From IMG/VR virus record IMGVR_UViG_3300027861_000010: 64,000 nt of DNA; one strand, written 5' to 3'. The stretch's first letter is position 1. Each line of letters starts with the position of its first letter. The DNA comes from a virus. Made by a program: the position numbers and the translations under genes. Of the stretch, positions 1,447 through 64,000 are shown piece by piece. The notes beneath the pieces are model-generated. The model saw only the letters and a program-made list of their open reading frames with translations. It did no database searches and had not been told where the DNA came from.

Positions 1447-4278
1447 TTGATGCCGTACAAAAGTGACGCCCAACGCCGGTACTTTAACGCTAATCGAGAG
1501 GAGCTCGAAGCTGAGGGCGTCGACGTGGACGAATGGAATGAGGCTTCTAAGGGCAAAGACATGCCGGAGAAAAAGGCTTACGCTGCGGATACGTCGTTTG
1601 CCGATGACTACGACGATACTCAATTGCGAGAAGCACTGGCAGAGCGTGTGCGTATGATCGCTCAGTTACGGGCACACCGAGATTCTTTGCTAGATGCTCA
1701 GTCTGGTTATATGCCTGAGAAGAGTGCTGTTGCCCGGCTGGCCAAAGCGGCTGCCGACATCTCCCTGGTGACCGTCCTGGATGACGACGACAACATGCTG
1801 TTGATTCGTCGGAGCAAGGAGAACACCCGTTCCGGTATGTGGGAGAACCCACTGGGACACAAAGATCCAGGTGAGACCGACATTCAGGCAGCTCGCCGGG
1901 AACTCAAGGAAGAAACTGGTCTGACGGCCAAACTGCTACCCAAGACTACCGCCGTTATGACTCCAGACGGGAAGAAACAGCTGCGGCTGTACGTTGGGAG
2001 AGTCAAGGGTGTGAAGCCGGACGTGTCGTTGGCTCCTGAGGAGCACGACAAACATCGCTGGGTTAAACCATCCAGCCTGGGTAAGATCAAGAAGACCAAC
2101 AAGGACATCGTCAAGAACACCAAGCGGTTATTCGACAGCAATGGTGTGGAGATCAAGGTAGCCAACTGGCTCAAGCCGCTGATGCAAGGGGCTGGCAACA
2201 TCTTCAAGCGGCAGATCGCCCCACCAGTGGCCGCAGGTGCTGCTGGTTATGTGGCTGCCCCTGCTTTCCAGGACATCGCTGGCATTGAGTCCGACATGGG
2301 TCGTGAAGCTCAACGCCTTGGCACCGCCGCGGGAGCTGCCAGCCTGGCCAGCCCTTGGTTGCGGCAGAAGATGTGGTCCAAGAACACACTGGGCAAAGAT
2401 CTGGCCCGCTTGATGAAGAAGAACCCACAGTACAGTGGATTCGGCCTCAACGAGATCAAGAAGCTCCATCCGGAGATCGGCAAGGGCATTGCTCCCCTTC
2501 GGGGAACGGTCACCACAGGTGCACTGCTGGCTGCTCCGACAGTGCTGGGCGGTTACTCGGACGCAGCCAAGCGGATGACCGAGACCTTTGAACGCAAGCT
2601 CAAGGAAAACCCTGAGATTGTGAATCCCTCGTATCACGTTGGCCAAGCGATCGACAAGACGCTCAACAGCGATCGAGCAAAGAGCACCCAGAAGGGCCTG
2701 ACTGACGTTGCCAAGCACATGGGAGGCTCTTTGGCTGGCAGCCTGGGCGGTTCAGCCTTAGGCTATGGCAGTGGGGCCTTGCTTGGTAGCATGTTGATGC
2801 CCGGCGAGAGTGCTGACTACAAAGAGCTCGACGAGAAGGGTTATCGTGCTCGGCGTAATCGTGAACGCATGAAATCAGTCTTGAAGCTCGTCGGTATGTA
2901 CGGCGGCGGGATTGGAGGAGCCATGCTCGGGCAGAAGTACCTGCCCGGGTTGATGGACAAATTAACCAAACAGAAACAGGGAAGTGACATGGTAACCATG
3001 ATCGAGAAGTTGGCTCGTCAAGCTGCCAGTGAAGCCGAAAAGGAAGAGAAGCCCAAGCGTGACGGCGACGGGGATGGCAAGGTCAATGATGGCACTTCTG
3101 CCGAAAAGAAAGCCCCAAAGAAGAAACCGAATACAGACAAGGCTCTAGGGACTGTCCAAGGGGCCTATGTGGCTGATGCCACTGGAGCAACGTCGGAGGA
3201 AAGGGCTGCCGATAAGATTACTGAGCGATTTGGTGATCGAAACGATCTGGGTGCTTACGATTCCCTGCTGACCGGCCTGGCTCCGTACTCCAAGCAGATC
3301 CACAAGCGTATTCGCCGTGGAGCATCCCGTCAGGCTGAAAGTGGTGCCCTGCGTCATCTCAGCAACCTGGATCCGACGCGTGAAGGAGGAACAGAAGGAC
3401 TTGTTGGGTTGGCTACTGGTCTGGGCAGCAAAGACACATCCGACCAAGAGGCTGTCACGGCTGAGCGGTACAAGAAGAAGATCAAGTCCCACCAAGCCAA
3501 GCTGTCCGACCCTGATGGGGAAACCACGAAGCGTCAAACGCCTTGGCACTTGGGGATGCAGGGTCGATTCGCCAACCTTGATTCGGATGTGGCCGGACAC
3601 GCGTATCACCGCAAAGAGACACCATTGAGTTACTGGCTCAATCCACTTGATAAGACTGGGCCATTTATGGAGCTGGGTAATCGAGCACAGCGTCGGATGA
3701 CGGCTGGTGGAGCTGAGCCTGAGGACACAGTGGGCCGCTTCGCCATGAATGCCATTCCACTGGCCAGTCTGATCATGGGCGGTGAGGGAGCCAAACAGAA
3801 GATTCGACGAACCGCGGACAAGAACGACATTTATGCTCCTGAGGCCAAGCCTGACATCAAAGATTTGGCCAAGGCTGCTGCCCTCTCAATTCCACCTGAG
3901 CTGTTGGCCAAGATGCAGGCAATGGGGCCAAGCTCGACGAACGCCTTGAAAACTCTCGGCGGTGCTCTGGGTGGCGGCACGCTGGGTGGATTAACTGGAG
4001 CTGGTGGTGCTGTCGGTGCAACGGTTGGTGGACTCAAAGGCTTGTTCAGCGATCCAGGTGAAGACGAAGAAGGAAACAAGAAGAGTCGCCTTATGGCTGC
4101 CTTGAAGGGCACACTTGGCGGTGGAGCCTTGGGAGCAGCTGGTGGACTTGCTGTTGGTGCTGGTGGTCTGGCTGGTGTTGGGCTTGGAGGTGCAGGCGGA
4201 TCAAGTCTGGCTGGGTTGTTCCACCAGAAAGCAGGAATTGACCAACTGGCTAAAGTCTCAGCAAGAGCGTGTGCCTAA
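1447..4278 (+). CDS. Putative virion polyprotein: N-terminal MPYKSDAQRR module, Nudix hydrolase domain, Gly-rich/glycine-zipper segments, DGDGDG motif
   Basis: Nudix box GHKDPGETDIQAARRELKEETGL (1855-1923) fits GX5EX7REUXEEXGU; domain bracketed by KAA (1744-1752) and KVA (2155-2163); several GxxxG-rich hydrophobic stretches. Confidence 0.8.
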   Translation: MMPYKSDAQRRYFNANREELEAEGVDVDEWNEASKGKDMPEKKAYAADTSFADDYDDTQLREALAERVRMIAQLRAHRDSLLDAQSGYMPEKSAVARLAKAAADISLVTVLDDDDNMLLIRRSKENTRSGMWENPLGHKDPGETDIQAARRELKEETGLTAKLLPKTTAVMTPDGKKQLRLYVGRVKGVKPDVSLAPEEHDKHRWVKPSSLGKIKKTNKDIVKNTKRLFDSNGVEIKVANWLKPLMQGAGNIFKRQIAPPVAAGAAGYVAAPAFQDIAGIESDMGREAQRLGTAAGAASLASPWLRQKMWSKNTLGKDLARLMKKNPQYSGFGLNEIKKLHPEIGKGIAPLRGTVTTGALLAAPTVLGGYSDAAKRMTETFERKLKENPEIVNPSYHVGQAIDKTLNSDRAKSTQKGLTDVAKHMGGSLAGSLGGSALGYGSGALLGSMLMPGESADYKELDEKGYRARRNRERMKSVLKLVGMYGGGIGGAMLGQKYLPGLMDKLTKQKQGSDMVTMIEKLARQAASEAEKEEKPKRDGDGDGKVNDGTSAEKKAPKKKPNTDKALGTVQGAYVADATGATSEERAADKITERFGDRNDLGAYDSLLTGLAPYSKQIHKRIRRGASRQAESGALRHLSNLDPTREGGTEGLVGLATGLGSKDTSDQEAVTAERYKKKIKSHQAKLSDPDGETTKRQTPWHLGMQGRFANLDSDVAGHAYHRKETPLSYWLNPLDKTGPFMELGNRAQRRMTAGGAEPEDTVGRFAMNAIPLASLIMGGEGAKQKIRRTADKNDIYAPEAKPDIKDLAKAAALSIPPELLAKMQAMGPSSTNALKTLGGALGGGTLGGLTGAGGAVGATVGGLKGLFSDPGEDEEGNKKSRLMAALKGTLGGGALGAAGGLAVGAGGLAGVGLGGAGGSSLAGLFHQKAGIDQLAKVSARACA

Positions 4279-4351
4279 TGTTCATTGTCTTGGCTGATTA
4301 CAGAACAGGGTCACACCTGCTCAAGTCGTTGTTGATTACTTGTAAGTTCCC

Positions 4352-4381
4352 GTGACAGAACTGCACACCAACCTGTATAAA
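4352..4381 (+). promoter_or_regulatory. sigma70-like promoter
   Basis: GTGACA-N18-TATAAA in intergenic DNA upstream of 4431. Confidence 0.45.
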
Positions 4382-16224: not shown

Positions 16225-16926
16225 ATGAAACAAAATCCGGATTTTGAGCGTCGATGTCGGATCAAGATGGCCTCAGCTGTCCTGAACATCAAAGCGATCG
16301 ACACAGAGTTGAAGAAGTACGACCGTTATGCTCTACAGAAGTCGGCAGCGATTGGTGCCCACAGGGATGAGCGAATCAAGTACGCCGCACTCATTCGACA
16401 ACGCGAGCTTGAGAAGCAAGCCTTCCTGGAAGCAGCAGGCAAGGTCTTGGGCGGATTGGCTGGCAAAGGTCTGATGGGCGGTGCTAAGGCTGGTCTTCAA
16501 GGAGCAGGCCGAGCAGCTCAAGGCGTCGGTCAGATGGCCGCAGGTGCAGCTAAGGGTGCTGTCGGGGGTGCAGCGAGGCAATCCCTCGGCAACATGTTAG
16601 GGAGTGCAGCTGGAGGTGCAGCTAGAGGCATAGGACAAGGCCTGACACAGGCGGTAAAAGCTAATCCGTTAAATGCTGCTCTCGGGACAGGAGCAGCAGG
16701 AGCCGCAGCCGGAACGCAACTGCCGGGCATGGCTCAGGGAGCCCAGAACACGGGCAACCAGGTGGTGCAACCTATGCAAAACATCGAACAAAAAATTCAA
16801 CAAGATATTCAGACCGCCCAGCAAGGAGCTGCCCAGCAAGGAGCTGGGAACTTTATGAATACACTCGGCCAGGCCGGTGGTGATGTAATGAGTGGCTTCC
16901 AGCAAGCAGGAAACCGATTTCGATAG
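16225..16926 (+). CDS. Gly/Ala/Gln-rich putative virion protein with KxA-rich leader
   Basis: KMA, KSA, KYA, KQA within the first 66 aa, then amphipathic FLEAAGKVLGGLAGKG; 15-nt tandem repeat at 16816-16845. Confidence 0.7.
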   Translation: MKQNPDFERRCRIKMASAVLNIKAIDTELKKYDRYALQKSAAIGAHRDERIKYAALIRQRELEKQAFLEAAGKVLGGLAGKGLMGGAKAGLQGAGRAAQGVGQMAAGAAKGAVGGAARQSLGNMLGSAAGGAARGIGQGLTQAVKANPLNAALGTGAAGAAAGTQLPGMAQGAQNTGNQVVQPMQNIEQKIQQDIQTAQQGAAQQGAGNFMNTLGQAGGDVMSGFQQAGNRFR

Positions 16927-17388: not shown

Positions 17389-17449
17389 TTACTTTTGGGG
17401 GACAAGATATACTGCCGACGTGTCGTACGAACTCTCATGGAAGGAAGCA

Positions 17450-50309: not shown

Positions 50310-50339
50310 CTGCTTGACGCAGATAAGGAGATCAAACAA

Positions 50340-51256: not shown

Positions 51257-51257
51257 C

Positions 51258-51986
51258 ATGGCCGGACCACTCCGATCAGCTGACAAGGCGTACTACGCTT
51301 CAAAGCAACCCCTATTTCTTCGCGGCACTCGCGAAGGTCGAAAGAACCCTGCACCCAACCCGTCGTACAAGCAGAAAGCGAACGACGTGACCGCGTCGTC
51401 GAACAAGTATTACGCCGCAATGGAGCCAGTGGCTACTTCGGTTCAGCCTGCCGCAGGTCAGAAACTGCAGACGACGTTCGCTCCAGAAAAGGTCGCTACG
51501 CTTCAGGCAAAGGCACAGGTCTTGCCGGACGTAGTTGCTGCCTTTCAAGGTGGAGCCACAACCGTACGTATCGAAGGTGAGTCCGCAGACATCAACAAGT
51601 CACGAGCCGCGGTTGAAATGGCTGTTGGACGTAAGACGCTGACACGGGAGCAGTCTGACCGTGTTGTTTTTGTCCCGGTACAAAAGCCCGCCACTTCTAA
51701 CGAGGTGGAGGTAGTAAGTACCGAAGAAGCCCCAGCCGTTCCTGTTGAAGCGGAAGCCATTTTGAATCCACCTGCGGAAGTCACGAAAACGCCAAAGAAG
51801 AAGACGACACGTAAGAAGACGACCAGGAAGAAGAAGACCAACACTGCTGCGGATGTTCCTGCAAGTGTTCCTGCAGAAGTGCAGGAACCGGCAGCGGAAG
51901 ATGATTCAGTGACTGAAGCTGACATTGCAAGTGCATTCGGAGTCGCGGACGACTCGGATGATTTCGATGCTGACAGTGACGATTAA
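51258..51986 (+). CDS. Hypothetical protein with histone-H1-like KKTTRKK tract and acidic tail
   Basis: PKKKTTRKKTTRKKKTN; C-terminal DDSDDFDADSDD. Confidence 0.7.
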   Translation: MAGPLRSADKAYYASKQPLFLRGTREGRKNPAPNPSYKQKANDVTASSNKYYAAMEPVATSVQPAAGQKLQTTFAPEKVATLQAKAQVLPDVVAAFQGGATTVRIEGESADINKSRAAVEMAVGRKTLTREQSDRVVFVPVQKPATSNEVEVVSTEEAPAVPVEAEAILNPPAEVTKTPKKKTTRKKTTRKKKTNTAADVPASVPAEVQEPAAEDDSVTEADIASAFGVADDSDDFDADSDD

Positions 51987-51998
51987 GTGAGTTTGTGA

Positions 51999-54900
51999 AT
52001 GCTCAACACTACAGTTGGACAACTGCTGGTCAACGAGGCCCTTCCTGACGAGCTTCGCGATTACAATCGCGTGCTCGACAATAAGGGTATGCATGCACTG
52101 CTCCAACAAGTGGCTCGAGAGCATCCAGACAAGTACCGTGAAGTTTCATTCAAGTTGAATCAGGTTGGTCAACGTTCCGCCCAAGACCAGGGCGGAATGT
52201 CGTTTAGTGCTCGACACCTGAAGCGTTCGCCGTATGCGAATGAAACTCGATCACGCATTCAGGCTCAACTGGGTAAGGTACTTGACGACGATTCCTTAAC
52301 TGACGAGCAGCGAGCGGCCAAAGTTGTTCGTATTGTTGGCAAAGAGATGGAACCTCAACAGAAGGCAATTCTGGAGGAGGCCATCAAAGACAAAAATCCC
52401 CTAGCGATGCAGGTGCTATCAGGTAGCCGCGGGAAGCCAATGAACTTGGCCAGCCTGTTGGGTGCTGACATGTTGTACTCAGATCATCGCGACGAGGTAA
52501 TTCCGATTCCGGTACTTCGCAGTTACAGCGAAGGGCTGACACCTGAAGAATACTGGGCCGGAACGTACGGAGCTCGTCGCGGCATTATCGCAACGAAGTT
52601 CGCCACTCAGGAAGCTGGTTTCTTATCTAAGCAGCTCAACCAGGCTGGACACCGGCTGGTGGTGATGGATGAAGAGGGCGAGGATGACGATCGCCGCGGT
52701 ATGGTTGTCGATACGGACGACATGGATAACGAAGGGTCATTACTGGCCCGCGACATGGGACCGTACAAGCGAAATACTCCGCTGACACCGAAGATTCTCA
52801 AGCACTTAAAGCGTCTCGGTAAAAACCGGATTTTAATCCGATCACCGCTGGTTGGCGGCTCGCCGGAAGGTGGAGTCTATGCTCGGGATGTCGGTATTCG
52901 AGAGACTGGTAAGTTGCCTGGCCGCGGCGAACAGGTCGGCTTGCAAGCAGCACAGGCATTAAGTGAACCGATCAGCCAAGGCCAATTGTCGGCTAAACAC
53001 TCGGGCGGCGTTGCTGGCCAAGAGAAAGCTGTCGGCGGTTTCCAGGCAATCAACCAGCTGATCCAGGTACCCAAGAAGATGCAAGGCGGAGCCGCTCACT
53101 CAGAAAAGGACGGCATCGTCCAACGAGTGGAGAAAGCTCCGGCTGGCGGACACTACGTCACGATCAACGATAAGCAACATTACGTTGGAGAAGGTTTTGA
53201 CGTCAAAGTCAAAAAGGGCGACGAAATCGAAGCGGGCGATCTGCTGAGTAACGGCATTCCTAATCCGGCCCTGATCGTGAAGTACAAGGGCGTAGGCGAA
53301 GGTCGTCGTTACTTTGTTAATGAGTTCCGCAAGGCGATGGCCGGAGGCGGAATGCAAGGGCATCGTCGTAACATCGAGCTGCTGGCTCGCGGACTCATCA
53401 ATCACGTCAAGATGACCGACGAGACTGACGAGCATGCTCCGGACGATATTATTCCTTACTCAACATTGGAGCACACCTATAAGCCGAGAGGAGACTCTCA
53501 GTTGTTGGCTCCAAAGAAAGCCGTCGGACAATACTTAGAGCGTCCGGTATTGCACTACACCATCGGCACCAAGATCCGCCCTTCGATGTTGAAAGACTTC
53601 GAGGAGTTCGGCATCACCGACTTGCCAGTCCATAAAGAACCACCTCCGTTCCAGCCGCACATGGTTCGAGGGATGTATACACTTCAACATGACCCAGACT
53701 GGATGACCCAGATGTACGGGTCTGGACTGAAGAAGAGTCTGTTGAATTCCACTGCTCGTGGTGCAACCAGCGATGCTCGAGGAACCAGTTTTGTTTCCAG
53801 TCTGGCTGAAGGCTCTGATTTCGGTGAGGTTGCAGATCGTGCTGTGATTCAGCCGAAGCCTTCGTACGAGTTGCCTAAGATTGAGCCACCTGCTCCTGAG
53901 GAAGAAAAGCTTCCGGCTCCTGCCGCTCCGCCTACACCGTCGTTCTTCGGTGGTCGGTTCAAGACTGGTATGCATAAACAGGCTGAGGAACCCAAAGTTC
54001 CGACAGCACCAAAAACGCCAGCAACGCAATCGCTTGCTGCACCATTGGCACCGACACCTGCTCCGACTGGGGCAGGTAATATGTCGTCGAATATCATGCC
54101 TTCGTCAGGACCTACAGCTCAGGATTTCATGCCAGCACCGGGTCAGTTGGGTTCACAAGAGAATCCCAACGGCATTATGCCTCCGGATCAGTTGCAGCAG
54201 TATGCTCAGAATGCTCAACAGCAGAATGACCGCGGGATGCGGATGGTGGGTGTAGACCCGATGTCTGATCCGTTCAGAACGCAGACAACTGCGGCAACGC
54301 CTCCGCCGTCAACTCCAGCTCAAGCCCGAGCCGACCAGGTACAGCAACAACGTAGCTACGGTAGTGGCAACACTCAAACGGATATGCGGACTTTGTTCGC
54401 TCAGGCACCTTCGAGAACCTTAGCTGGTAACTCCCTGGCACGGAAGATGCGTCGAGGGGATGCTCGTACAATGGGGATCCAGGCAGCTCGACAACGTGCT
54501 CAACAGATACAGAACGAGCAAGCTGCTCGCCGGAATCTGTACCAACAGGCCCACCCACAGCGAGCTTATGACCCTATACCGGGGCCGTCAGTCGCGGGAC
54601 CATTACCTGCAGAGCAGTCACAAAGTCCCGTACCGGCAACTGGCGAGATGGGTTATGGTGACGTGGCTGGCACTTTACTTGCCGGACAACATGCCTGGAC
54701 GCAAGGCGGTAGAGTTTGGAATGCGGCGGCTAAAGGTGAAATGCTTACGCACGGTTCACAGCTAGGCAAGTCACTCAATCCTGGAGCACAGAAAGGCGTT
54801 CAGACGGTAAATCAGTTGGCCCGTACCGCAGCACACAAGACCCCAGGACTCGGACGCTTTGTTGCTGCCACAAGTGATGATGCCGCCCGGGCTGCTGGAG

Positions 54901-55886
54901 CAAGCAGCAAAGGACTCTCAAAGGCCCTTGGTCCTGCTGCTTTTGTGTTGGAAGGTGGGCTTATCGGGAAAGACATTTACGATAAGACACAAGAAGGGCA
55001 ATCGTTTGGTCGGGCCTGGAAAGAGCAGGCGGATGAGCACGGAGCTAATACTCGAGGCCTGTTTACTGACTGGGATGGCGGTGCTCACGAGATATATCAG
55101 AAACCTATTGATGTGGCGATGCATGTGCTGAGCCCGGTAGCTACTGTGCAGGAAGGAACACAATTGGCCGCCGAAGTCGGCGGCGGTCTCGGAGATATGG
55201 CCACAGGTGCGTGGAACTTCGCGTCGGATGCTGAGGGACGTAACCGGGCAGCAGCAAAAGCCGAAACCGAACAAATGATGGCTGATCGCCAGGAGGCTCT
55301 ATCAGGAGAGCAGGACCAGATCCGGTCAACGCTGGAAAATAATAAAACAATCTCGCCGATGCAGAAAGAAGAGTTACGCCAACGCTCTGCCGAGTTAGAC
55401 TTACGGAAGCAGGAAGCCCAGTTGAAAGCTGACGCGGCCACGGACGAAACAGAAGGCTGGCAGCTCGGTAAGCAACACACATTTGGTACTGGTGGACATT
55501 ACTTTCGTGACGCAATGGCCGGGACAGGGAACCGGCTTTCAGCGAAAATCGAAAAATTACAGGCTAACCAGGATAGTCTGACACCAGAACAACAGTTCGA
55601 TTTGAAGAATATGATTCGCAGGCGTGACGAGATGAAGAGGCTGGGAGACTTTTACAGTCGCGAAGTTGGCTATTTTGGTGAAGGAGATTTCACTAAAATT
55701 ATGCGAATCCGTGTGCGAAACATAAAAGTCCAGTCAGTGGAACTCGCCCGGCGACTACGCGAGCCTGCTGTAAAAGGGAACCCTCAGCTTACAATGGAGT
55801 TGGAAGCTGAGATGCGACATCAACAAACCCGCCTTGCAAACATGAAAAGCTGGGCTAGACAGGCCAAGAATCAGAAGGTCAAGTAG
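51999..55886 (+). CDS. rpoC: RNA polymerase beta' C-terminal half (aa 1-~610) fused to a ~630-aa Pro/Gln/Gly-rich extension
   Basis: TTVGQLL, SGSRG, bridge helix EGLTPEEY..GARRG..T..AGFL, trigger loop GLQAAQALSEP..Q..KHSGG; HKQA at aa 659-662 precedes the non-RNAP tail. Confidence 0.9.
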   Translation: MLNTTVGQLLVNEALPDELRDYNRVLDNKGMHALLQQVAREHPDKYREVSFKLNQVGQRSAQDQGGMSFSARHLKRSPYANETRSRIQAQLGKVLDDDSLTDEQRAAKVVRIVGKEMEPQQKAILEEAIKDKNPLAMQVLSGSRGKPMNLASLLGADMLYSDHRDEVIPIPVLRSYSEGLTPEEYWAGTYGARRGIIATKFATQEAGFLSKQLNQAGHRLVVMDEEGEDDDRRGMVVDTDDMDNEGSLLARDMGPYKRNTPLTPKILKHLKRLGKNRILIRSPLVGGSPEGGVYARDVGIRETGKLPGRGEQVGLQAAQALSEPISQGQLSAKHSGGVAGQEKAVGGFQAINQLIQVPKKMQGGAAHSEKDGIVQRVEKAPAGGHYVTINDKQHYVGEGFDVKVKKGDEIEAGDLLSNGIPNPALIVKYKGVGEGRRYFVNEFRKAMAGGGMQGHRRNIELLARGLINHVKMTDETDEHAPDDIIPYSTLEHTYKPRGDSQLLAPKKAVGQYLERPVLHYTIGTKIRPSMLKDFEEFGITDLPVHKEPPPFQPHMVRGMYTLQHDPDWMTQMYGSGLKKSLLNSTARGATSDARGTSFVSSLAEGSDFGEVADRAVIQPKPSYELPKIEPPAPEEEKLPAPAAPPTPSFFGGRFKTGMHKQAEEPKVPTAPKTPATQSLAAPLAPTPAPTGAGNMSSNIMPSSGPTAQDFMPAPGQLGSQENPNGIMPPDQLQQYAQNAQQQNDRGMRMVGVDPMSDPFRTQTTAATPPPSTPAQARADQVQQQRSYGSGNTQTDMRTLFAQAPSRTLAGNSLARKMRRGDARTMGIQAARQRAQQIQNEQAARRNLYQQAHPQRAYDPIPGPSVAGPLPAEQSQSPVPATGEMGYGDVAGTLLAGQHAWTQGGRVWNAAAKGEMLTHGSQLGKSLNPGAQKGVQTVNQLARTAAHKTPGLGRFVAATSDDAARAAGASSKGLSKALGPAAFVLEGGLIGKDIYDKTQEGQSFGRAWKEQADEHGANTRGLFTDWDGGAHEIYQKPIDVAMHVLSPVATVQEGTQLAAEVGGGLGDMATGAWNFASDAEGRNRAAAKAETEQMMADRQEALSGEQDQIRSTLENNKTISPMQKEELRQRSAELDLRKQEAQLKADAATDETEGWQLGKQHTFGTGGHYFRDAMAGTGNRLSAKIEKLQANQDSLTPEQQFDLKNMIRRRDEMKRLGDFYSREVGYFGEGDFTKIMRIRVRNIKVQSVELARRLREPAVKGNPQLTMELEAEMRHQQTRLANMKSWARQAKNQKVK

Positions 55887-56229: not shown

Positions 56230-56258
56230 GCCGGGAGCTGCTGCTCATGGAAGGAACC

Positions 56259-58772
56259 ATGCATACTTCAATTATTACAAAATCTGCCAACCTTGGCGGC
56301 AGTGGTGGCGAGACGGAATTTGAACAAGCATTTTCCAGCCTCGCATACGCTTACCTGCGGGACAAAGCTCCTCGATTGCTCGACCACATGGTCGGCTTTC
56401 AGCTTGTCGACCGCAACGAAGACAACACCAAAGCCATGGGGATCTTCGGATTCCAGATCGATAAGCAGTGGCTTTATGCTCCCGTCTTCTTCCTGAACGG
56501 TGACCTCAAGGGTCATGAGTTGTTGTACATGAAGAACAACGACTCCTTCGTTCCGATGAAGGAGAACTGGATCAACTACATCATGAGCCGCAAGCCTCAT
56601 GTATTGGGCGAGTCCTCTTCAGATCAACTGCGGGATCTTGGAGGCATCTACCCTGATATCCGGTCGCTTTCGATACCGCCTTCGGTTGGCGGCGGTAAGC
56701 GAGCATCGGATCAGGAGTGGCTGAAAGACGCTATGCCGATGCTGGCTGCGTTCAAAGTCAAAGCTGCCAGCTCGCTTTTCCCTGGAGCTGGAAACCGCAA
56801 ACTTAACCAGGCAGCTGTCGTCGAAGCTCCGCTTACTGCGGCATTGACCAAGCACGCTCAAAATCTGGATTTTAACCAGATCATGCCGACCAGCTTGGAA
56901 TTGATGAAGCAGGCACACGACATCGCTGAGATGTATCCGACCATTAAGCAGGCGATGCAGAAGTTCTACGGCGTCGATTGTTTCAGCCGATGGGGCCGAG
57001 AGTATCGCGATAACACGGCCAAAGAGGCTGGCAACATCATGCCAGAGAAGCGGGCTGCCGCTCGGCCATACATGCCTGGCAATTTGCTGATTCCTACGGA
57101 GCGACCGGCTGGTCCCGTCGACCACGAAAAATCCGGCAAGCTCCGGATGTATGTTTACGAAGAAGTCATTGTCAGCAAGGCTCCGGAGTTGGACGAGGAC
57201 GAGCGTGAGCGTCTACAGAAAGACACCGTCCTGATTAAGGATCACCGCGAAGGGGAAGAAGTCAGCAAGGCCTACAATACTCAGGTCGAAGCCAAACTGA
57301 CGAATCCCTCAGAGACCGCCCTCTACCGTGTGTTGGTTAAGCCGGGCGAGTTCAAAAAGATGCTGATCGCCATGAACGGCTCCAGCAATCGAGGTCGTGA
57401 AGCCATGGCGACAGTTGTCCGCCTGGAAGATAACGGCGACGGATCGAACAAGGCCTGGTTGAATACGCACCCGACCAATGTTTTCGCTGATCAGATCAGT
57501 GAACGTGATGAGTGGGAAGAGTGGTTCAACGGATTGGGCGATTCAAGTTCGCTGACTGAAGGTGCTGAGTACATCGCAGTCGCAGAGAACGGTTCAACCT
57601 CGGTGCCATTTACCGTGCAGTCCAGTTACGGCGATGATCGTTATCGTGTTGATTTCCGTACCGACATTAACTGGAACGAGACTCGACCAGCCACGATGCC
57701 TCGTGTTGCTGCTAACCGTTTCGATCAGTACGGTGACGACCAGGACCGGGCTCCGTCGCCGTACGGGGCAATGCTTTACATCAACAAGGAAGGCAAGAAG
57801 GGCACCAAGATTCGAGCGATCGGTGGCGAACTTCGCATTCCAGAGGACTTCAAGTTCCTTAAACTCAAAAGCCCACAGAAGTCGAAACCTGGCGAGCTCA
57901 TGTGTTGTAGCGATTACGAGACTCGTAGCGACATGCCGCCTATCAATCTCGGAAAGATCGACGACATCCAGTTGCTCTTCCACGAGAAGACAGCTCGATT
58001 GAAGGTTTTCAACAACGGCACTGACGTGTATATCTCGTCGCCGTTGGGTGAGCAGTGTCTATCTAAGAAGTCTGCTCTACTGAACCTGGTCGGTACGCAT
58101 GGCTTTCGTGAAAAGGTTGCCCGGGAGATTCTGACTTACGCCGAACAGAAAGGTAACGCGGTTTACCGTGCGTCTTATGCTCCCGGCTATGGGCCTGAAA
58201 AACAAGCTGCTCCGAACAGAAGTATGCTGGCTGGCGGGCCAAGTGCTCCGATGTACGATGACTTTGCCAACGAGCAGAGTGTGGAAGAATACGGTCCTCG
58301 AACGGCTGTACCAACTCAGTACGGTAGCGAGCAGGCTTACCGTGTCGACAGCATGACAGCAGATCAGACCGATCCGGCAGTATGGGACAATTGGCAGAAC
58401 TATTCTGCTGAGGATTTCCAAAGCAGCATGCAGGTTGCTCAGCAGGCCGGTGCCGAAGGTCAGAAAGAGGTTTTCGACACTTCGATGATCTCTGGAATGC
58501 TCAAGTCCGTTCGACAGGATTCGCTTGTTGAGCGACATCTTGGTAGTCTGGTCGAAGCGTTGGACGCTCTTGGGCGTTTGATCATGAACTTCTACTGGCA
58601 CCAGGAGGAGTTTGAAGATCGTTACGGTAAGAGCGATTTACCTGAACTGGAAGACAGCTTGCGGAATGCATTCGAGTCCCTGGGTGACATCACTCTGTTC
58701 CTCAAAGAGAAAACTATCGAATCGCCGTTCGACGAAGGCGATGTCGATCTCGAAGAAACTGCAAGGAATTAA
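56259..58772 (+). CDS. Large KxA-rich putative structural protein of unknown function
   Basis: AAGGA RBS; about 12 KxA; folded-looking N-terminus (VGFQLVD..GIFGF..PVFFLNG) and helical C-terminus. Confidence 0.75.
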   Translation: MHTSIITKSANLGGSGGETEFEQAFSSLAYAYLRDKAPRLLDHMVGFQLVDRNEDNTKAMGIFGFQIDKQWLYAPVFFLNGDLKGHELLYMKNNDSFVPMKENWINYIMSRKPHVLGESSSDQLRDLGGIYPDIRSLSIPPSVGGGKRASDQEWLKDAMPMLAAFKVKAASSLFPGAGNRKLNQAAVVEAPLTAALTKHAQNLDFNQIMPTSLELMKQAHDIAEMYPTIKQAMQKFYGVDCFSRWGREYRDNTAKEAGNIMPEKRAAARPYMPGNLLIPTERPAGPVDHEKSGKLRMYVYEEVIVSKAPELDEDERERLQKDTVLIKDHREGEEVSKAYNTQVEAKLTNPSETALYRVLVKPGEFKKMLIAMNGSSNRGREAMATVVRLEDNGDGSNKAWLNTHPTNVFADQISERDEWEEWFNGLGDSSSLTEGAEYIAVAENGSTSVPFTVQSSYGDDRYRVDFRTDINWNETRPATMPRVAANRFDQYGDDQDRAPSPYGAMLYINKEGKKGTKIRAIGGELRIPEDFKFLKLKSPQKSKPGELMCCSDYETRSDMPPINLGKIDDIQLLFHEKTARLKVFNNGTDVYISSPLGEQCLSKKSALLNLVGTHGFREKVAREILTYAEQKGNAVYRASYAPGYGPEKQAAPNRSMLAGGPSAPMYDDFANEQSVEEYGPRTAVPTQYGSEQAYRVDSMTADQTDPAVWDNWQNYSAEDFQSSMQVAQQAGAEGQKEVFDTSMISGMLKSVRQDSLVERHLGSLVEALDALGRLIMNFYWHQEEFEDRYGKSDLPELEDSLRNAFESLGDITLFLKEKTIESPFDEGDVDLEETARN

Positions 58773-58775
58773 ACT

Positions 58776-59417
58776 ATGGCTGGTGGATACTCTCGAACAG
58801 TTGCCTTCACGGGCGTGGCAGCAACTCCTATTTGCGTGGAGTTGCCGCTGCCTCCTCGCGGTATTCTGGAGCGGCTGATTGTTACTCAGGTGTCAGGCAC
58901 ACCAGGCGGCGGTACGCTTTCGGTCTATAATCGGAAAGGGGCTTGTGTTGGCGAAGTTGACTTGAATGTCGACGAGTCCGGCTCAGTAACCGCCTCGGCT
59001 GGAAGCCCTGGAAATGTTCTTATCTTCTTCGCTGCGGACCACAATCTAAAGGTTGGTGATTCGTTCGAGGTCAAAGGGCACACTGAGGCAAGTGTCAATG
59101 TAACGCACGAGGTTGTCACAGTTATCAATTCTACTACTGTTATAACTGACATTGCGTTCGTAGGAGTAGGCACTGGCGGCGTTTGGCAGACTTCACCATT
59201 CTTTCCAACCCAACACCCAGACTCCCACCTTGTTTACGAGGGCACCGTAGCCGCTGGATCGCTGAAGGCTTTCGATATTGGCCGAGGCTATGAGAATCGA
59301 GACAACCAGAGTGAAACGATGCGAGCTCGGCACCAAGCCCTGTGGATGGAGTTTACCCCGGCGAACCCCGGCGACTACGAAGTCGCAGTTACTGCTGAAG
59401 CCGACACTGTGATCTAG
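58776..59417 (+). CDS. Beta-rich putative structural protein
   Basis: HNLKVGDSFEVKG small beta-barrel pattern seen in phage structural proteins; location in the virion module. Confidence 0.55.
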   Translation: MAGGYSRTVAFTGVAATPICVELPLPPRGILERLIVTQVSGTPGGGTLSVYNRKGACVGEVDLNVDESGSVTASAGSPGNVLIFFAADHNLKVGDSFEVKGHTEASVNVTHEVVTVINSTTVITDIAFVGVGTGGVWQTSPFFPTQHPDSHLVYEGTVAAGSLKAFDIGRGYENRDNQSETMRARHQALWMEFTPANPGDYEVAVTAEADTVI

Positions 59418-59426
59418 GAGAGACCC

Positions 59427-60452
59427 TTGAAGGTTTACAGGGACGTAAAATTAGCTGATCCTTTCTTAAGGCCAAACTGGCGACACGAGCGTGTTGTCAA
59501 GATGCTTGATAGTGTGCCGCCGGAACGTGTCAAGCGAACTGACGACGAGTGGATTGCTGGTTACAAGAAGTTCTTGCAGCAGTGGAGCAAAAGCGAAGCT
59601 AACCGGGACAAGCTCCTGTACGACAACCCTGGGTTGTACTTCGCTTACGTCATGTTCGATCGAATGTTCACGGAGCCTGAGCTTCGACTTATGATCGAAG
59701 CTCGGCTACTATCTGGCCTGACATACGCGGATATCGCAGAAGAATGTAAGACGATTCCGGAAACCATACAGTGGTATGAGCGGCTGTTCTTCAATGTGAT
59801 TGAGTTTTTACCCAACCACGATTGGATAATGAAGCACGTTCTCTTGCCATCCTCCGACCGTTTCGTGCAAGATGATACCGCGGATGATGACGAAGAAGTC
59901 GCCTTTGCCCCTAAACCTTCCAATGAAGTCGTCCGACCTCATCTTGATATGACGTTGAAGTTCTTCGCTTATTATGGTGGTCCAATGGTTTGCGACCAGA
60001 TGATCAGCGGATTCCGGCGAGATAAGCGAGTCACCTCGCATGAAGATCTTCCAGAGTATTTCCACGAACAATTCATGTCTCAAGTAACGCGTCGAAGTGC
60101 TCAGTCGTCAGGGCAATTCGAGATCAACAAGTACAACGTGATGGAGTTGTTCGCGACTCACACTAGAATTATCGAGATTCAACGATCGGCTGAGAGTGCG
60201 GAAGATCGTCACAACGAGTTTGAGAAACACGTCAATGCGATGTTGACTGAACTGCCATGGACTGTCGGCCTCGAAAGCAAGAAACTGTATGAAGGTTCTG
60301 AAATCGGGAAGTTCGACGCAGGTGCGTCTGAGCTGAACGAGGAAGAACTGATGCTATTCGGGTCGGGCAGAGAGCCGGAGTCGTTGGATGATGTTGCCGG
60401 TCTGACCATATCCAGCCGGAAGGAGCCGGAGAATAATGCAAAGTCTAAGTAA
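59427..60452 (+). CDS. Hypothetical helical protein
   Basis: TTG start after AGGAG; long ORF. Confidence 0.7.
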   Translation: MKVYRDVKLADPFLRPNWRHERVVKMLDSVPPERVKRTDDEWIAGYKKFLQQWSKSEANRDKLLYDNPGLYFAYVMFDRMFTEPELRLMIEARLLSGLTYADIAEECKTIPETIQWYERLFFNVIEFLPNHDWIMKHVLLPSSDRFVQDDTADDDEEVAFAPKPSNEVVRPHLDMTLKFFAYYGGPMVCDQMISGFRRDKRVTSHEDLPEYFHEQFMSQVTRRSAQSSGQFEINKYNVMELFATHTRIIEIQRSAESAEDRHNEFEKHVNAMLTELPWTVGLESKKLYEGSEIGKFDAGASELNEEELMLFGSGREPESLDDVAGLTISSRKEPENNAKSK

Positions 60453-61827
60453 ATCTGATGAGCAGTTGCTGCTCGATGGCGTCAAGCAGGCGGTGGCCTT
60501 GGTGGATAACCAAGATCTATCGCCAAATGCTGCGATGCATAAGGTGGCTGAGGAGTTACAGTACTCCCCAGGCTTCCTCAAGGCAGCATGCAACGCGTTC
60601 AACAACGGGCGACAACTTGCCCAGTGGAACGCCAATGACTCCGTGTTGGATAAGTTGGCCAGCTTCCCGCTCGCCAATTACGACGAGATCCACGATACGA
60701 TGTGGGGTACGACACAGGAGAAGGTCGCATCTGTTTCATCGTTCGGCCCTAAGTTCGACACGTACGAAGAGCAATCTCGGCGGGAACTGTTGAACATGGA
60801 CCTGTCGAGCTTTGAGAAAGCCGCATCAGATGCTCCTGAAGTGCATCCGTTGGTGGCGGACGAACACGCTGATATGCGGTCCAAGCGAGCCTACTCTGAT
60901 TTTGAGTTCGCTCGGAGGGAGCTGGAAGAAGCTCGCCGCGAGAAGTCGTCCAATGACGACCGACTCAACCTGAAGATGCACTTGCTGGAGAATTACTTCC
61001 GCAAGTTTGCTTATGATCGTTTGCCGTTTGCCCAAGTAGAGCACGGCGTAGCGACTTATTTCGGGGAGCCCGGTAAAGCTCTGATGGGCTACATCGCCGA
61101 GCGATTTCCTCGAGAGAAGCGAGCTTCGGACCACCAATCAACTTGGGATGGTTTTCAGCAGCCGGTGAATCGACGACAAGAACCCTACGCTCTGATCGCT
61201 GATTGCATCAAGCAAGCCAAGGATCTGTATGCGGCCACAGTTCAACTCGCTGCCGCTGAGGAAAAGTTCGCCAAAGCAAAGGAAGGTGTTGCCCCTTTTT
61301 CACAACCCCGATCCCCAGAGTCGAATGGGAGCCAGCCTACCCTGACTCCATCGTTGATTGCTGATGGATCGGGGGAAAAGCAGGCCAACATTTTTGGAGG
61401 CATCGCTGGAGGCATGGGGCTTGGAGCTGCTAGGTCCATGACCGAAGGACTGGGCAGCGACCCGGAAGCTCGGATCGAGAAGCAGATTTCTGAACTGGAA
61501 AGCCCCGACCATCTGAACGAGATGCGAAAGATTCGAGCTCAGACCGTATTGACTCAGCTGATGAGCGATCCTGACAGCCCGCTCAGCGGCTACGATCCGG
61601 AAGAAGTGCTGACCGCATACAATGAAATGGTGCAACTGTCGCCCCGATTAGCAGATCAACCTGCGGCCATTGCTCCGCTCCTCAACAAGCGGTTGATGGG
61701 TAACACTGAGCCTTTCGAGGTTGGCGAGCAAGTCAAACTCGAGAAGGGACTCAAGGACGTACAGGCCCCACAGTCAGCACCCAAACCAGTGGACTTGATG
61801 AAAAATGAAGCCAGTATCATTAGCTGA
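60436..61827 (+). CDS. Putative scaffold-like pro-protein, KxA-rich N-terminal two-thirds
   Basis: 12 of the first 20 Lys are in KxA; helical/coiled-coil character; lies upstream of the protease. Confidence 0.65.
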   Translation: MQSLSKSDEQLLLDGVKQAVALVDNQDLSPNAAMHKVAEELQYSPGFLKAACNAFNNGRQLAQWNANDSVLDKLASFPLANYDEIHDTMWGTTQEKVASVSSFGPKFDTYEEQSRRELLNMDLSSFEKAASDAPEVHPLVADEHADMRSKRAYSDFEFARRELEEARREKSSNDDRLNLKMHLLENYFRKFAYDRLPFAQVEHGVATYFGEPGKALMGYIAERFPREKRASDHQSTWDGFQQPVNRRQEPYALIADCIKQAKDLYAATVQLAAAEEKFAKAKEGVAPFSQPRSPESNGSQPTLTPSLIADGSGEKQANIFGGIAGGMGLGAARSMTEGLGSDPEARIEKQISELESPDHLNEMRKIRAQTVLTQLMSDPDSPLSGYDPEEVLTAYNEMVQLSPRLADQPAAIAPLLNKRLMGNTEPFEVGEQVKLEKGLKDVQAPQSAPKPVDLMKNEASIIS

Positions 61828-63052
61828 TATCACGTACGAGCAAGGACTCCAGTTGATTGTTCTGCGAAAGCAGGCTCTGGATTCTGGCAAAGTACGTCGC
61901 ATGCCCAAAGAGGCTCTGGACAGCAATTACCCGCTGCACGCTATCGGTACGCAAGTGCTGGAGAAGGTTGCAGAGGGTGGTTTTATGGACGGCATCGGTA
62001 AGTCGTTATCGAGCGGACTCAGCGGAGCCAAGGACTGGTTCGGTAAGTTGGATCCGACTGTGAAGTCCACGCTGATCGGCGGCGGACTTGGAGCAGGCAC
62101 CGGCTTGGCAGCATCCGCCATGAATCGGGATCGGCATTGGCTCCGTAACGCCTTGATGGGCGGTGTAGCCGGTAGTGCAATCGGTGGCGGTATTGGTGTT
62201 GCCCGTAACCCGGGTGCTGCTGACAAGATTCGAGACAAGCTCACTGGCTTCGCTGAGAGCTTCAATAACAAGGACGCCCCGAAACCAACAGCCGAAGCAG
62301 CACCTGGCGGCGGATCACCAACACCTGCCCCACTTGAAGACAAATCCGTTGCAGGTCGAGCTCGGCAACTGGTCGATGCAGATCCTGAAACTTCTGCCAG
62401 CCAGATTGATTCCCTGCGAACTGACGCTGAGAGTTGGGCTCCGGAAATTGTTCACGGAACTGGAGCGGCTGGAACGGTCGGAGCCACAGGTTACGCCCTG
62501 CGTAAGTTGCAGCAGATGAAAGGGTATGACCCTGACGCGATGCTGACTCACCTGGGTCAAATGGCTGACGATACTCCAAACCTTCCTCGTAAGTTGGATT
62601 CGATTGGTATTCGTACCATGGATCAAACTGACGAGGCGTTGAGAGGGCTGGGTCCAATCGCTACTCAGCCGGGTCGAGATGCAGCATTGTGGCGGCAATT
62701 TCGAGCCAACCCGCAAGACCCAGCTCTGCGGAAGCAGATTGAAAAACTGTTGGCTGCTCGGGGAATCAAACGTAATTTGATGGGTGGTGTCGCGGCAAAG
62801 GGTTCACCTGCACTGAAGAATTTCCTTGCAGGCAGCGGTGATGATGCCCTTGAAACCGTCCTGAGCAAAGGCTTCAGCGGCAGACGACCTGTTCGAGGCG
62901 GAGCTGCTGGTCTACTTGTCGGAGCTAGCGGGTTAGGGCTCAAGGGGCTATGGGACAGCTACAAATCACAGCAAGCTCACCGCACGGACGCTAAGAATGT
63001 TCTTGACGCCGTGCGAGCTGAACTAGCAAAACGAAATGCCGCAGGCGGGTAA
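61805..63052 (+). CDS. Gly-rich putative virion protein
   Basis: RKQA and EKVA leader, then amphipathic GFMDGIGKSL and glycine-zipper TM segments. Confidence 0.7.
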   Translation: MKPVSLADITYEQGLQLIVLRKQALDSGKVRRMPKEALDSNYPLHAIGTQVLEKVAEGGFMDGIGKSLSSGLSGAKDWFGKLDPTVKSTLIGGGLGAGTGLAASAMNRDRHWLRNALMGGVAGSAIGGGIGVARNPGAADKIRDKLTGFAESFNNKDAPKPTAEAAPGGGSPTPAPLEDKSVAGRARQLVDADPETSASQIDSLRTDAESWAPEIVHGTGAAGTVGATGYALRKLQQMKGYDPDAMLTHLGQMADDTPNLPRKLDSIGIRTMDQTDEALRGLGPIATQPGRDAALWRQFRANPQDPALRKQIEKLLAARGIKRNLMGGVAAKGSPALKNFLAGSGDDALETVLSKGFSGRRPVRGGAAGLLVGASGLGLKGLWDSYKSQQAHRTDAKNVLDAVRAELAKRNAAGG

Positions 63053-63056
63053 CGAT

Positions 63057-64000
63057 ATGGGAATGGTCAAATTTGTCTCGCCTCTGGGTTGGGACTTTCA
63101 ACAACGGATTGTCACTCCAGTCAAGGTTAGCAGCCGGGGCTTAACGGGATCGGATCGTACCGAATTCCTGAAGTCAGCCAGTCATGCTTTTCTTCCTCAG
63201 CTGGACAACGTCAAATTCGCTAAAGACGAGATCCCGGTTCATTTGATCGCCCTGGGCTCGAGCGAAGCTTACGGTCCCAACCGAAATGGTGACGGATTTA
63301 AGGAAGCAGCTTGCCGACAGTTCCACGATACGTTCGTGAAGTTTGCCAAGTTCTACCGCAACCACAAAAACAAAGCGGAAAGGGGAGACCCTTTCTACGG
63401 CATCGTCAAAGCTTCAGCGTACAACGAAGACATGCGGCGGGTGGAATTACTTTGTGCCTTGAACGCCGAGAAGTCAGCAGCGTCCCGTAATGGCGGGTTC
63501 GTTGCTGATGCTGAGATTGAGAAGATTGCTCGCGGCGAGGACATTCCTGTCAGCATGGCTTGCCGTGTTCCGAACGATGTTTGCTCGTTCTGCAAACATG
63601 CAGCCCGTAATCGGGACGAGTATTGTACCGGCGAGAAGTGTGCAGCTGGCGGTTGTCGGTCCAACCTGACACGGTTGGTAAAAGTTGCAGGCGACCTACA
63701 TCATCTACATGTCGACAATCCTAATCCAACCTGGTTCGACATCAGCCGAGTGTTCCGTCCTGCAGATCGAATTGCTTACGGAGCCAAAGCTGACTACCTG
63801 ACTAAGTCTGCATCTGATGCGGCTTGGTTCGACTTGCAGGACTACATCAAGATGGCGGAGCACTCGACTGCTCCGTTGGATGTTATCCTTTATCAGACAG
63901 GAAATCACGGTCTTTGGTCAGAGAAGTATGCATCCCAGGTCCGACTTGGTTATGCTTTAGCGGCTCTGGAAGGCGAGCGGGGCTCTACAAATGAGTATCG
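63057..64000 (+). CDS. Prohead/maturation serine protease-like protein (HK97/assemblin fold), truncated by window end
   Basis: Open frame from ATG 63057 to the end (translated manually; absent from ORF track): GPNRNGDGF, FYRNH (His), VSMAC (Ser) with CSFC Cys insert, WFDISRVFRPAD. Confidence 0.75.
   Translation, partial: MGMVKFVSPLGWDFQQRIVTPVKVSSRGLTGSDRTEFLKSASHAFLPQLDNVKFAKDEIPVHLIALGSSEAYGPNRNGDGFKEAACRQFHDTFVKFAKFYRNHKNKAERGDPFYGIVKASAYNEDMRRVELLCALNAEKSAASRNGGFVADAEIEKIARGEDIPVSMACRVPNDVCSFCKHAARNRDEYCTGEKCAAGGCRSNLTRLVKVAGDLHHLHVDNPNPTWFDISRVFRPADRIAYGAKADYLTKSASDAAWFDLQDYIKMAEHSTAPLDVILYQTGNHGLWSEKYASQVRLGYALAALEGERGSTNEY

Follow-up and report, generated by a model that had tools for sequence, protein, structure and literature searches.

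Lys-x-Ala as a Probable Cleavage Signal of a Diverged Prohead Protease in a Large Clade of Almost Wholly Uncultured Phages

In a 64,000-nt stretch of viral DNA (IMGVR_UViG_3300027861_000010; hereafter the window, on whose + strand the features given with coordinates below lie), the tripeptide Lys-x-Ala (KxA) recurs densely near the 3' end, and the question that this locus raises is what, if anything, reads the motif and in which proteins. An initial annotation had proposed from hand counts that a protease uses KxA to process many pro-proteins encoded along positions 1447-64000. We examined this by comparing the KxA count of each ORF with residue-shuffled controls, with the ORFs followed 9 kb further through identical contigs. 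The hand counts were all reproduced (12 of 20 Lys in the frame from 63057, 12 of the first 20 Lys in 60436, 4 sites in the leader of 16225, and 2 of 50 Lys in nrdJ), and the frame from 56259, put at about 12 sites, held 13. The signal did not extend across the stretch, since shuffling left a significant excess in only three window ORFs (56247-58772, 60436-61827 and 63036-end; each p <= 2e-4), which are adjacent at the window's 3' end, with three more enriched genes just past it. Pooled, these six genes held 71 KxA against 19.3 expected (z = 11.8), and no other of the 1,600 gapped residue pairs deviated as strongly. The remaining ~73 genes, which include both RNA polymerase (RNAP) genes, nrdJ and a NUDIX protein, held 105 against 106.6 expected. 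The RNAP genes were near background, as the annotation had it (10 versus 10.4 expected and 3 versus 8.0), with a pooled ratio of 0.84 over 16 orthologs.

The residues around the motif were likewise distinctive. The flanking pattern first described as E-K-x-A-(S/A) was confirmed in the enriched genes as a logo, E-K-x-A-(A/S)-(D). Compared with background KxA, the six-gene sites carried E at -1 in 37% versus 19%, A or S at +3 in 51% versus 19%, and D at +4 in 24% versus 10%, while a hydrophobic preference at P5 was moderate (34% versus 18%). A leave-one-protein-out flank PWM separated the six-gene sites from background KxA (Mann-Whitney p = 8e-5). RxA, KxS and KxG were at or below expectation, and these other P1/P3 choices were thereby ruled out.

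The enriched genes sit in a head block with unenriched genes interleaved. The first encodes an 841-aa protein (56247..58772; 13 KxA versus 4.4 expected, p = 2e-4) that is a homolog of the structural protein gp218 of Salmonella phage Arash, with matches at the N- and C-termini. Its sites cluster at residues ~150-270 and ~580-655, two hot regions with site-free domains between, and these hot and cold regions are kept in 24-25 orthologs. An AF2 model of this protein (pLDDT 64.7) gave no portal or other convincing fold match, a PDB sequence profile search gave no match, and a portal gene was looked for within the window and not identified. The two genes that follow (213 and 341 aa; 58776..60452) hold one KxA each and served as internal negative controls, with pooled ortholog ratios of 0.94 and 0.76, respectively. 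Next is an acidic 463-aa protein (60436..61827; 12 KxA versus 3.2 expected, p = 2e-4), in which all 12 sites lie in residues 17-317, 12 of the first 20 of its 28 Lys are within KxA, and the last ~146 residues are without sites; across 25 orthologs the last three length deciles are site-free. A basic 415-aa protein directly upstream of the protease (61805..63052) was unenriched overall (4 KxA versus 3.7 expected; pooled ortholog ratio 0.82), although three of its four sites fall in the first 56 residues and the site at residue 54 has a high flank score. Beyond the window are an acidic scaffold-like gene (433-438 aa, pI 4.2; 15 of 30 Lys within KxA), a 146-aa gene (8 of 12-13 Lys) and a 145-aa gene (5 of 9 Lys). 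Pfam and PHROGs returned no family for any KxA-rich protein.

The gene at the 3' end of the window encodes the candidate reader of the motif. Its 5' two-thirds occupy 63036..64000, translation may begin at the Met at 63057, and the gene ends ~530 bases beyond the window, giving a full protein of 498 aa. The window part holds 12 KxA versus 2.4 expected, and in the full-length protein 18 of 29 Lys are within KxA. The protein has an assemblin/gp21 beta-barrel fold followed by a 250-aa helical C-terminal domain. The candidate catalytic serine, Ser173 (VSMAC; codon at 63552..63554), is invariant in 113/113 mutually diverged family members, and the candidate catalytic histidine, His110 (FYRNH; codon at 63363..63365), is kept in 112/113 (99%); with the Ser-His-His triad of herpesvirus assemblin in view, H69 is 94% and H222 70% conserved. 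Inteins in homologs are inserted between Ala175 and Cys176, two residues past Ser173, and a second intein class lies at profile positions ~102-110, at the His110 motif. The order of the two residues and their spacing of 63 residues are as expected for assemblin-fold proteases, and the spacing is similar to that of the T4 gp21 catalytic pair, His85/Ser140. Just after the catalytic-serine strand, four cysteines (C183, C186, C197 and C202; 63582..63641), all present in 113/113 members, probably form a metal site. A Pfam/PHROGs scan (Peptidase_S77, S21, S78) gave no protease family match at E <= 0.1, and a PDB sequence search with the family profile found nothing; the enzyme is therefore a fold-level relative rather than a sequence member of S77 or S21. 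Downstream of the protease come the acidic 433-aa scaffold-like protein, the 146-aa protein, a 180-aa protein and then the major capsid protein (MCP), an order that is the same in Arash, Vibrio phage D69 and phage G. Fold, gene position and the invariant Ser and His thus support the assignment of this ORF as a capsid-maturation protease.

The excess was replicated in 31 non-redundant IMG/VR contigs with protease identities of 27-78%. Six orthogroups were enriched in every member contig tested: the protease in 31/31 (pooled 454 KxA versus 141 expected), the 463-aa protein in 29/29 (348 versus 122), the 841-aa protein in 27/27 (310 versus 119), the 433-aa protein in 27/27 (316 versus 123), the 146-aa protein in 23/23 (128 versus 35) and the 145-aa protein in 20/20 (82 versus 21). 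The interleaved head-block genes had pooled ortholog ratios of 0.76-1.19. Among 112 protease representatives sharing less than 50% mutual identity, KxA was the top pair in 95 and was 2.2-5.5-fold enriched in all. The clade comprises 2,765 protease clusters at 50% identity, almost wholly from uncultured phages of 170-240 kb, and the cultured members found were only Arash, three Vibrio phages and, distantly, phage G. The same orthologs were enriched in cultured Arash and D69; in Arash, the ORFs ranking 1, 2, 3 and 6 of 253 for KxA adjoin the protease homolog. In phage G the enrichment lies around the protease, with gp19 (the protease) and gp21 enriched, and the MCP is without KxA. No clade using a different motif turned up among the loci compared. 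In the most distant loci, L045 and L046, KxA was still enriched around the protease, and QxL, considered there as a motif switch, was rejected, being confined to one or two repeat-like ORFs.

N-terminal sites also occur in proteins outside the six enriched genes. The capsid protein, homologous to the Arash MCP (E = 4e-38), has a single KxA at residues 32-34, invariant in 124/124 close homologs; nearly every contig ortholog has this site within residues 25-37, and it aligns with K-E-A in Arash and D69. Its flank score is second among the 105 KxA sites outside the six genes. At the other end of the window, residues 1-44 of the 943-aa NUDIX protein (1447..1578) form a tentative cleavable leader that ends at P-E-K-K-A. 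Residues 2-44 share 74-81% identity with two relatives (three sequences in all), similarity ends precisely at the KxA alanine, beyond which the sequences diverge, and in one relative the leader and the NUDIX match belong to separate ORFs. This site scores in the top five of the same 105, and two further high-scoring KxA lie just before the NUDIX domain, although the protein overall was unenriched (7 versus 10.9 expected). This segment may be a cargo leader; its use as a tag shared by several cargoes was ruled out, with one copy per genome and occurrence in 2/5 relatives. A possible leader of a 233-aa protein (16225..16422) holds 4 KxA in 66 residues (p ~0.04 uncorrected for the cluster, p = 0.12 for the whole protein), and no orthologs of this ORF were found in viral contigs.

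From the enrichment, its gene-specific and clade-wide conservation, and a protease fold with invariant Ser and His, we infer cleavage at KxA; by analogy with related enzymes the scissile bond would follow the Ala. The motif is dense in the protease, its acidic scaffold-like neighbour and the small core proteins, and it occurs once near the capsid N-terminus, a distribution in keeping with a P3-x-P1 recognition signal of this enzyme. Overall, KxA is probably the substrate-recognition and cleavage signal of the phage's own prohead protease, a diverged enzyme of the T4 gp21/herpesvirus assemblin fold. The protease would act inside the assembled procapsid and bind its substrate as an extended strand, with Lys at P3 and Ala at P1, cutting after the Ala; P1' would be small (Ala or Ser) and often followed by an acidic residue, with Glu frequent at P4 and a moderate preference for hydrophobic residues at P5. 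The acidic scaffold-like protein, the two ~145-aa core proteins and the protease itself would be reduced to pieces mostly below 50 residues, of a size that can exit or be compacted. The 463-aa protein, a predicted substrate, would lose its N-terminal two-thirds as pieces of 40 residues or less, the 841-aa protein would be cut in its linkers, and the major capsid protein would lose ~34 N-terminal residues. The initial proposal is supported as to the identity of the protease and the behaviour of the motif; its claim that the motif alone predicts the virion proteome is not supported.

The likeliest alternative, though an unlikely one, is that KxA is a non-proteolytic short linear motif, either for multivalent docking among the capsid interior, core proteins and protease, or as the site of a lysine-modifying enzyme. 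The statistics show selection on KxA and not its reader, and about half of the protease's own KxA lie within the folded catalytic domain, on helices and strands modelled with confidence, where cuts would need unfolding or slow self-destruction. In addition, the KxA-rich gp220, gp222 and gp223 of Arash are annotated as structural proteins, so that at least fragments remain in the virion and they are not simply expelled. Against docking or modification, however, T4 cuts the same gene classes that carry KxA here (protease, scaffold, small core proteins and capsid N-terminus), the A-(A/S) in a P3-x-P1 layout fits assemblin-type sites, conservation of the NUDIX leader ends exactly at a KxA, and a Pfam scan of 19 window proteins gave no lysine methyltransferase or comparable enzyme.

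It is very unlikely that no reader exists and that the excess is a structural or compositional by-product of helix starts, internal repeats or a few inherited KxA. The enriched proteins are Ala-rich (11-17%), many protease sites are at or near helix starts in the model, and some are kept only because the catalytic domain is conserved. However, shuffling controls for composition, and the neighbouring 415-aa (13.7% Ala) and 180-aa (13.3% Ala) proteins are equally Ala-rich with KxA at background. The motif is shared by a domain rich in beta strands, a helical one and an acidic protein that is disordered; no tandem repeat accounts for it; and RxA is unenriched although Arg should suit helices equally. 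Many KxA are lineage-specific, and the number per protein is kept even where only 15-19% of columns are identical. Conservation of K and A is ~80% across the protease's variable C-terminal half, compared to 20-40% for the flanks.

Slightly less probable still is the wide version in the initial annotation, that KxA tags most virion proteins and packaged cargo (RNA polymerase, NUDIX and SET proteins) and so predicts the virion proteome: the NUDIX leader and the four sites of ORF 16225 speak for it, as do the two sites before the NUDIX domain, but the beta'C HKQA site has an unremarkable flank score, KxA counts in the ~73 genes outside the block exactly match expectation with both RNAP genes at or below it, most of the ~70 annotated structural proteins of Arash are at background, tail and baseplate genes of Arash and D69 have almost zero KxA, Arash RNAP subunits are not annotated as structural, and Pfam found no SET domain at E <= 0.01 in the proteins scanned from 19 of the ~70 window ORFs.

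It is also fairly likely, if somewhat less so than the cleavage itself, that a very large clade uses a Lys-P3/Ala-P1 specificity undescribed for any virus, and that sequence alone reveals which head proteins are processed, their propeptides, and a cleavable N-terminal leader for targeting on at least one protein, the NUDIX enzyme. If KxA is the cut site, the head maturation map of a large uncultured phage group would be readable from its genomes, including which proteins act as scaffold or core and are broken down, where the capsid protein begins after processing, and which domains are left as internal or ejected proteins. Only about six head-core genes are marked by the motif, which is unsuited as a predictor of virion proteins; virion and metaproteomic spectra could be searched again with cleavage set after K-x-A. 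In the literature searched, which left most subscription journals out of reach, there was no precedent for a Lys/Ala prohead-protease rule, and searches found nothing on Arash or on processing sites of phage G, nor proteomic, N-terminal sequencing or biochemical evidence of a cut in this phage or any relative.

The rule is best read as a new specificity of a known mechanism. T4 gp21 follows the rule L/I-x-E, phiKZ-type prohead proteases S/A/G-x-E, and assemblins cut Ala|Ser. KxA shares the P3-x-P1 format with all three and its A-(A/S) matches Ala|Ser, which supports its reading as a cleavage site; if true, Lys-x-Ala| would be the fourth specificity of assemblin-fold proteases, intermediate between the Glu-P1 of phages and the Ala-P1 of herpesviruses, and would bear on pocket change in an ancient family. 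As a positive control, the same blind scan on T4 gp67, gp68, gp21 and gp22 ranked IxE first and LxE third, recovering the gp21 rule; the enrichment there, as in this phage, falls in the protease and scaffold. The phiKZ gp175 and SPN3US gp245 systems resemble this one: their phages are large, have a multisubunit RNAP and cut many of their head proteins at a short motif; they differ in the Glu at P1 and in lineage, the cultured relatives here being Arash, D69 and phage G. The SPN3US gp245 motif favours Ser at P1', and SPN3US propeptides hold several motif copies (PMC10052503); those sites were mapped by mass spectrometry, whereas the KxA sites are known from the sequence only. Compared to herpesvirus assemblin (MEROPS S21; R and M sites (V/L/I/Y)-x-A|S), P3 is Lys here and hydrophobic there, as in the pseudorabies virus (PrV) sites YLQA-T and VQA-S, and a particle's protein set is predicted to have dozens of sites where assemblin has two or three; the HCMV and KSHV proteases also have internal cleavage sites (PMC4498786). 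Compared to T4 gp21 (MEROPS S77), with sites in gp22, gp21, gp67, gp68, gp23, gp24 and internal proteins, the site has Ala where T4 has Glu (P1) and Lys where T4 has Leu/Ile (P3), the protease, at 498 aa, includes a 250-aa helical C-terminal domain as well as an invariant Cys4 cluster, and the motif is enriched 3-4-fold, against about 2.7-fold in T4 gp21 and gp22.

Seventy non-overlapping ORFs were called on the + strand, which carries all long ORFs of the window (GC 50-55%), and the number of Lys-any-Ala (KxA) motifs in each was compared with residue shuffles. The counts made by hand in the initial annotation were all reproduced on recount, and the enrichment stood against shuffling in three ORFs (each p = 2e-4): 56247-58772, encoding an 841-aa protein (13 KxA observed, 4.4 expected), 60436-61827, encoding a 463-aa protein (12 observed, 3.2 expected), and 63036-end, the portion of the prohead protease gene that lies in the window (12 observed, 2.4 expected). 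No other ORF in the window was significant, the best remaining p of 0.03 being meaningless among 70 tests; ORF 16225, which has four sites within 66 residues, gave a whole-protein shuffle p of 0.12 and, before correction, a p of about 0.04 for local clustering. Completed beyond the window end, the protease is 498 aa long and has 18 of its 29 Lys in KxA. Three further genes beyond the window were rich in the motif: the gene after the protease (433-438 aa; 15 KxA, 30 Lys) and those for a 146-aa protein (8 KxA, 12-13 Lys) and a 145-aa protein (5 KxA, 9 Lys). A 315-aa capsid protein contained exactly one KxA, and a glycosyltransferase and a 660-aa protein, also beyond the window, contained none. 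In an unbiased scan of 1,600 residue pairs (gaps 0-3), KxA ranked first in the six enriched genes (71 observed, 19.3 expected, z = 11.8), followed by EK (z = 5.5), and 71/161 Lys of the six proteins had Ala at +2. RxA, KxS and KxG were at or below expectation in the same proteins, and KxA itself was at expectation in the remaining ~73 genes (105 vs 106.6). The signal that had been ascribed to positions 1447-64000 is thus real, and it is limited to a block of about six genes rather than a 62-kb span.

The same enrichment was found in relatives. At 50% identity, the protease family fell into 2,765 clusters (E <= 1e-3), or 1,142 under a stricter limit of E <= 1e-30. In 95 of the 112 full-length representatives no other pair was as enriched as KxA, and all 112 carried 8-21 sites each, 2.2-5.5-fold over expectation. 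When 36 IMG/VR loci (protease identity 27-78%, flanks of ±10 kb) were taken and the ORFs from -5 to +7 kb were scanned blindly, KxA came first in 31 and second in three more. ORFs from 31 non-redundant loci were then grouped by homology to the window lineage, and all six orthogroups were enriched in every member: the protease (31/31; pooled KxA 454 vs 141 expected), the 463-aa protein (29/29; 348 vs 122), the 841-aa protein (27/27; 310 vs 119), the 433-aa protein (27/27; 316 vs 123), the 146-aa protein (23/23; 128 vs 35) and the 145-aa protein (20/20; 82 vs 21). Orthologs of the interleaved genes (RNA polymerase [RNAP] beta'C, the 213-, 341-, 415-, 180- and 125-aa proteins, the capsid protein and the glycosyltransferase) were not enriched, with KxA at 0.76-1.19 times expectation. 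The count per protein was kept despite turnover of the positions, even at 15-19% identical columns, and in the variable C-terminal half of the protease the K and A were ~80% conserved, vs 20-40% for the flanks. In the 841-aa and 463-aa families, KxA fell in the same hot regions across 24-25 orthologs, and the domains between these regions, as well as the last 30% of the 463-aa protein, were almost free of sites. Among cultured phages, Salmonella phage Arash had 254 KxA genome-wide (266 expected), and ranks 1, 2, 3 and 6 among its 253 ORFs were held by gp220, gp225, gp223 and gp222, all around the protease homolog. The same four genes were enriched in Vibrio phage D69, whose tail genes were nearly free of sites, and in phage G the enriched genes were gp19 and gp21. 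In the most distant relatives, two adjacent ORFs (L045 8566-10440; L046 13492-15108) were strongly enriched in Q-x-L (13-16 vs ~3 expected); this is unrelated to KxA, and the product is probably a repeat protein.

The source of the window is a large tailed phage. The last 12,196 bases are identical or nearly so in three metagenomic contigs that reach 9 kb beyond the window end, and related contigs measure 170-236 kb. The + strand encodes a split multisubunit RNAP, with a beta-beta'N fusion (45855-50309) and a separate beta'C gene (51999-55886), a B12-type ribonucleotide reductase (39737), a 943-aa NUDIX protein (1447) and an epimerase, along with many ORFs without any family. The RNAP layout (45855-55886) is syntenic with Arash gp206 and gp216 (31% and 25% identity), and the Arash gene order of RNAP, 841-aa protein, protease and capsid protein is matched. 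One relative, L007, has Hint/intein domains inside its beta'C gene, and a 335-aa protein of the window (17378-18385) gave a weak match to the collagen triple-helix repeat (E = 3e-4, below the Pfam cut-off). The 841-aa protein sits where phage G has its portal gene, and it showed no similarity to portals by sequence or by predicted fold; in Arash the annotated portal is another gene, gp204, which precedes the RNAP, and the window yielded no portal homolog.

The cultured-phage tblastn matches of the 63036 protein were Arash gp222 (a structural protein), hypothetical proteins of three Vibrio phages, and phage G gp19; in both phage G and Arash, the homolog lies upstream of the capsid gene. A multi-omics study of phage G identified gp19 as the head maturation protease and gave no cleavage rule (PMC12484599). 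Since no protease-family model from Pfam, PHROG or PDB sequences matched the 63036 protein, it is a fold-level relative of S77 or S21 rather than a sequence member of either. Across 113 mutually diverged members, Ser173 was invariant and His110 was 99% conserved. Many homologs are ~870 aa and a few ~1,240-1,300 aa long owing to homing inteins (e.g. P0005, P0021 and P0363); one class lies between Ala175 and Cys176, two residues past Ser173, and others lie near profile positions 72-74 and 102-110, the latter beside His110. Inteins favour active-site motifs, and their placement therefore supports Ser173 and His110 as the candidate catalytic pair. The window's own gene (63036-64000 within the window) is intein-free. 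Cys 183, 186, 197 and 202 (window 63582-63641) were also invariant among the 113 members; this four-Cys cluster, inserted just after the strand of the catalytic serine, is probably a metal site, and nothing comparable is known to us from T4 gp21 or from assemblins.

The sites in the six genes shared flanking residues that were absent from background KxA of other proteins. Glu directly preceded Lys in 37%, Ala/Ser directly followed Ala in 51%, Asp stood at the next position in 24%, and a moderate hydrophobic preference was present at P5, two residues N-terminal of Lys (Leu/Ile/Phe/Met in 34% vs 18% background). A leave-one-protein-out flank matrix separated the enriched-gene sites from background KxA (Mann-Whitney p = 8e-5). 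By this matrix, the only KxA of the 315-aa capsid protein, at residues 32-34, scored second among the 105 KxA outside the six enriched genes. Its homolog in Arash is the annotated major capsid protein (E = 4e-38). The KxA of the 315-aa protein was invariant in 124/124 close homologs, fell between residues 25 and 37 in almost every contig ortholog, and aligned with K-E-A of Arash (residues ~26-28) and D69 at an overall identity of about 29%. Removal of a short propeptide would call for just such a lone conserved site, ~30 residues into the protein. At residues 22-24, close homologs of the capsid protein (L005 15218-16165, beyond the window) divide about equally between a second site, K22-L-A24, and K-L-S, Ser and Ala alternating at this one position.

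The initial annotation had proposed that KxA marks virion proteins and packaged cargo throughout the genome. As a wide cargo code this was not supported: the RNAP genes were at or below expectation, and the HKQA site of beta'C had an ordinary flank score. Nor did the motif mark virion proteins in general, most Arash structural proteins being without enrichment, and the SET domain around which sites had been placed was not detected at E <= 0.01 (Pfam) among the 19 window proteins scanned. Residues 1-44 of the NUDIX protein (1447-1578) are 74-81% identical in two relatives, with the pattern MPYKSDAQRRYFNAN...GVDVDEWN...PEK-x-A (L054/L056 and L055/L057); the match breaks off precisely at the P-E-K-x-A Ala, beyond which the proteins diverge, and in one relative the leader and the NUDIX match are on different ORFs. 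High flank scores were also obtained for two more sites N-terminal of the NUDIX domain (107-220), at residues 92 and 100. From these three sequences, the first 44 residues look like a cleavable N-terminal leader.

Because KxA is under selection beside a maturation protease, we infer that the motif is cut after Ala, the prohead protease reading Lys at P3 and Ala at P1. If all sites were cut, no piece longer than 48 residues would remain of the protease, and none longer than 38 residues of the 146-aa and 145-aa proteins; the 463-aa protein would yield one C-terminal product of 146 residues, the 841-aa protein three domains of 139, 313 and 187 residues, and the 433-aa protein (pI 4.2, Asp+Glu 21.5%) would retain one 133-residue piece. 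This predicted pattern mirrors the fate of T4 head proteins, of which gp22 and gp21 are degraded and the internal proteins lose N-terminal pieces. The cleavage reading calls for caution, as about half of the protease's own KxA sites fall in confidently folded elements, Arash gp220, gp222 and gp223 are annotated as structural, which would mean that fragments persist in virions, and the phage G capsid protein has zero KxA.

As a control, the same blind pair scan was applied to gp67, gp68, gp21 and gp22 from the annotated T4 record, for which the cleavage rule, (L/I)-x-E, is experimentally known. IxE came first (15 vs 5.9) and LxE third (16 vs 7.0), indicating that the method recovers a known rule; KxA was at background in the four proteins. 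The T4 motifs were concentrated in the same gene classes as carry KxA in the window phage, namely protease (7 vs 2.6) and scaffold (16 vs 5.8). No description of a Lys/Ala rule for a prohead protease was found in the searchable literature, outside which most subscription journals lie. The rule of phiKZ-type phages is (S/A/G)-x-E, and to our knowledge every assemblin-fold protease characterised so far recognises a P3-x-P1 signal. Herpesvirus sites are (V/L/I/Y)-x-A|S; in pseudorabies virus, for instance, they read YLQA-T and VQA-S (PMC4498786). K-x-A with A/S after it conforms to this P3-x-P1 format; the proposed mechanism is of a known kind, and what is new is the specificity and the breadth of the clade.
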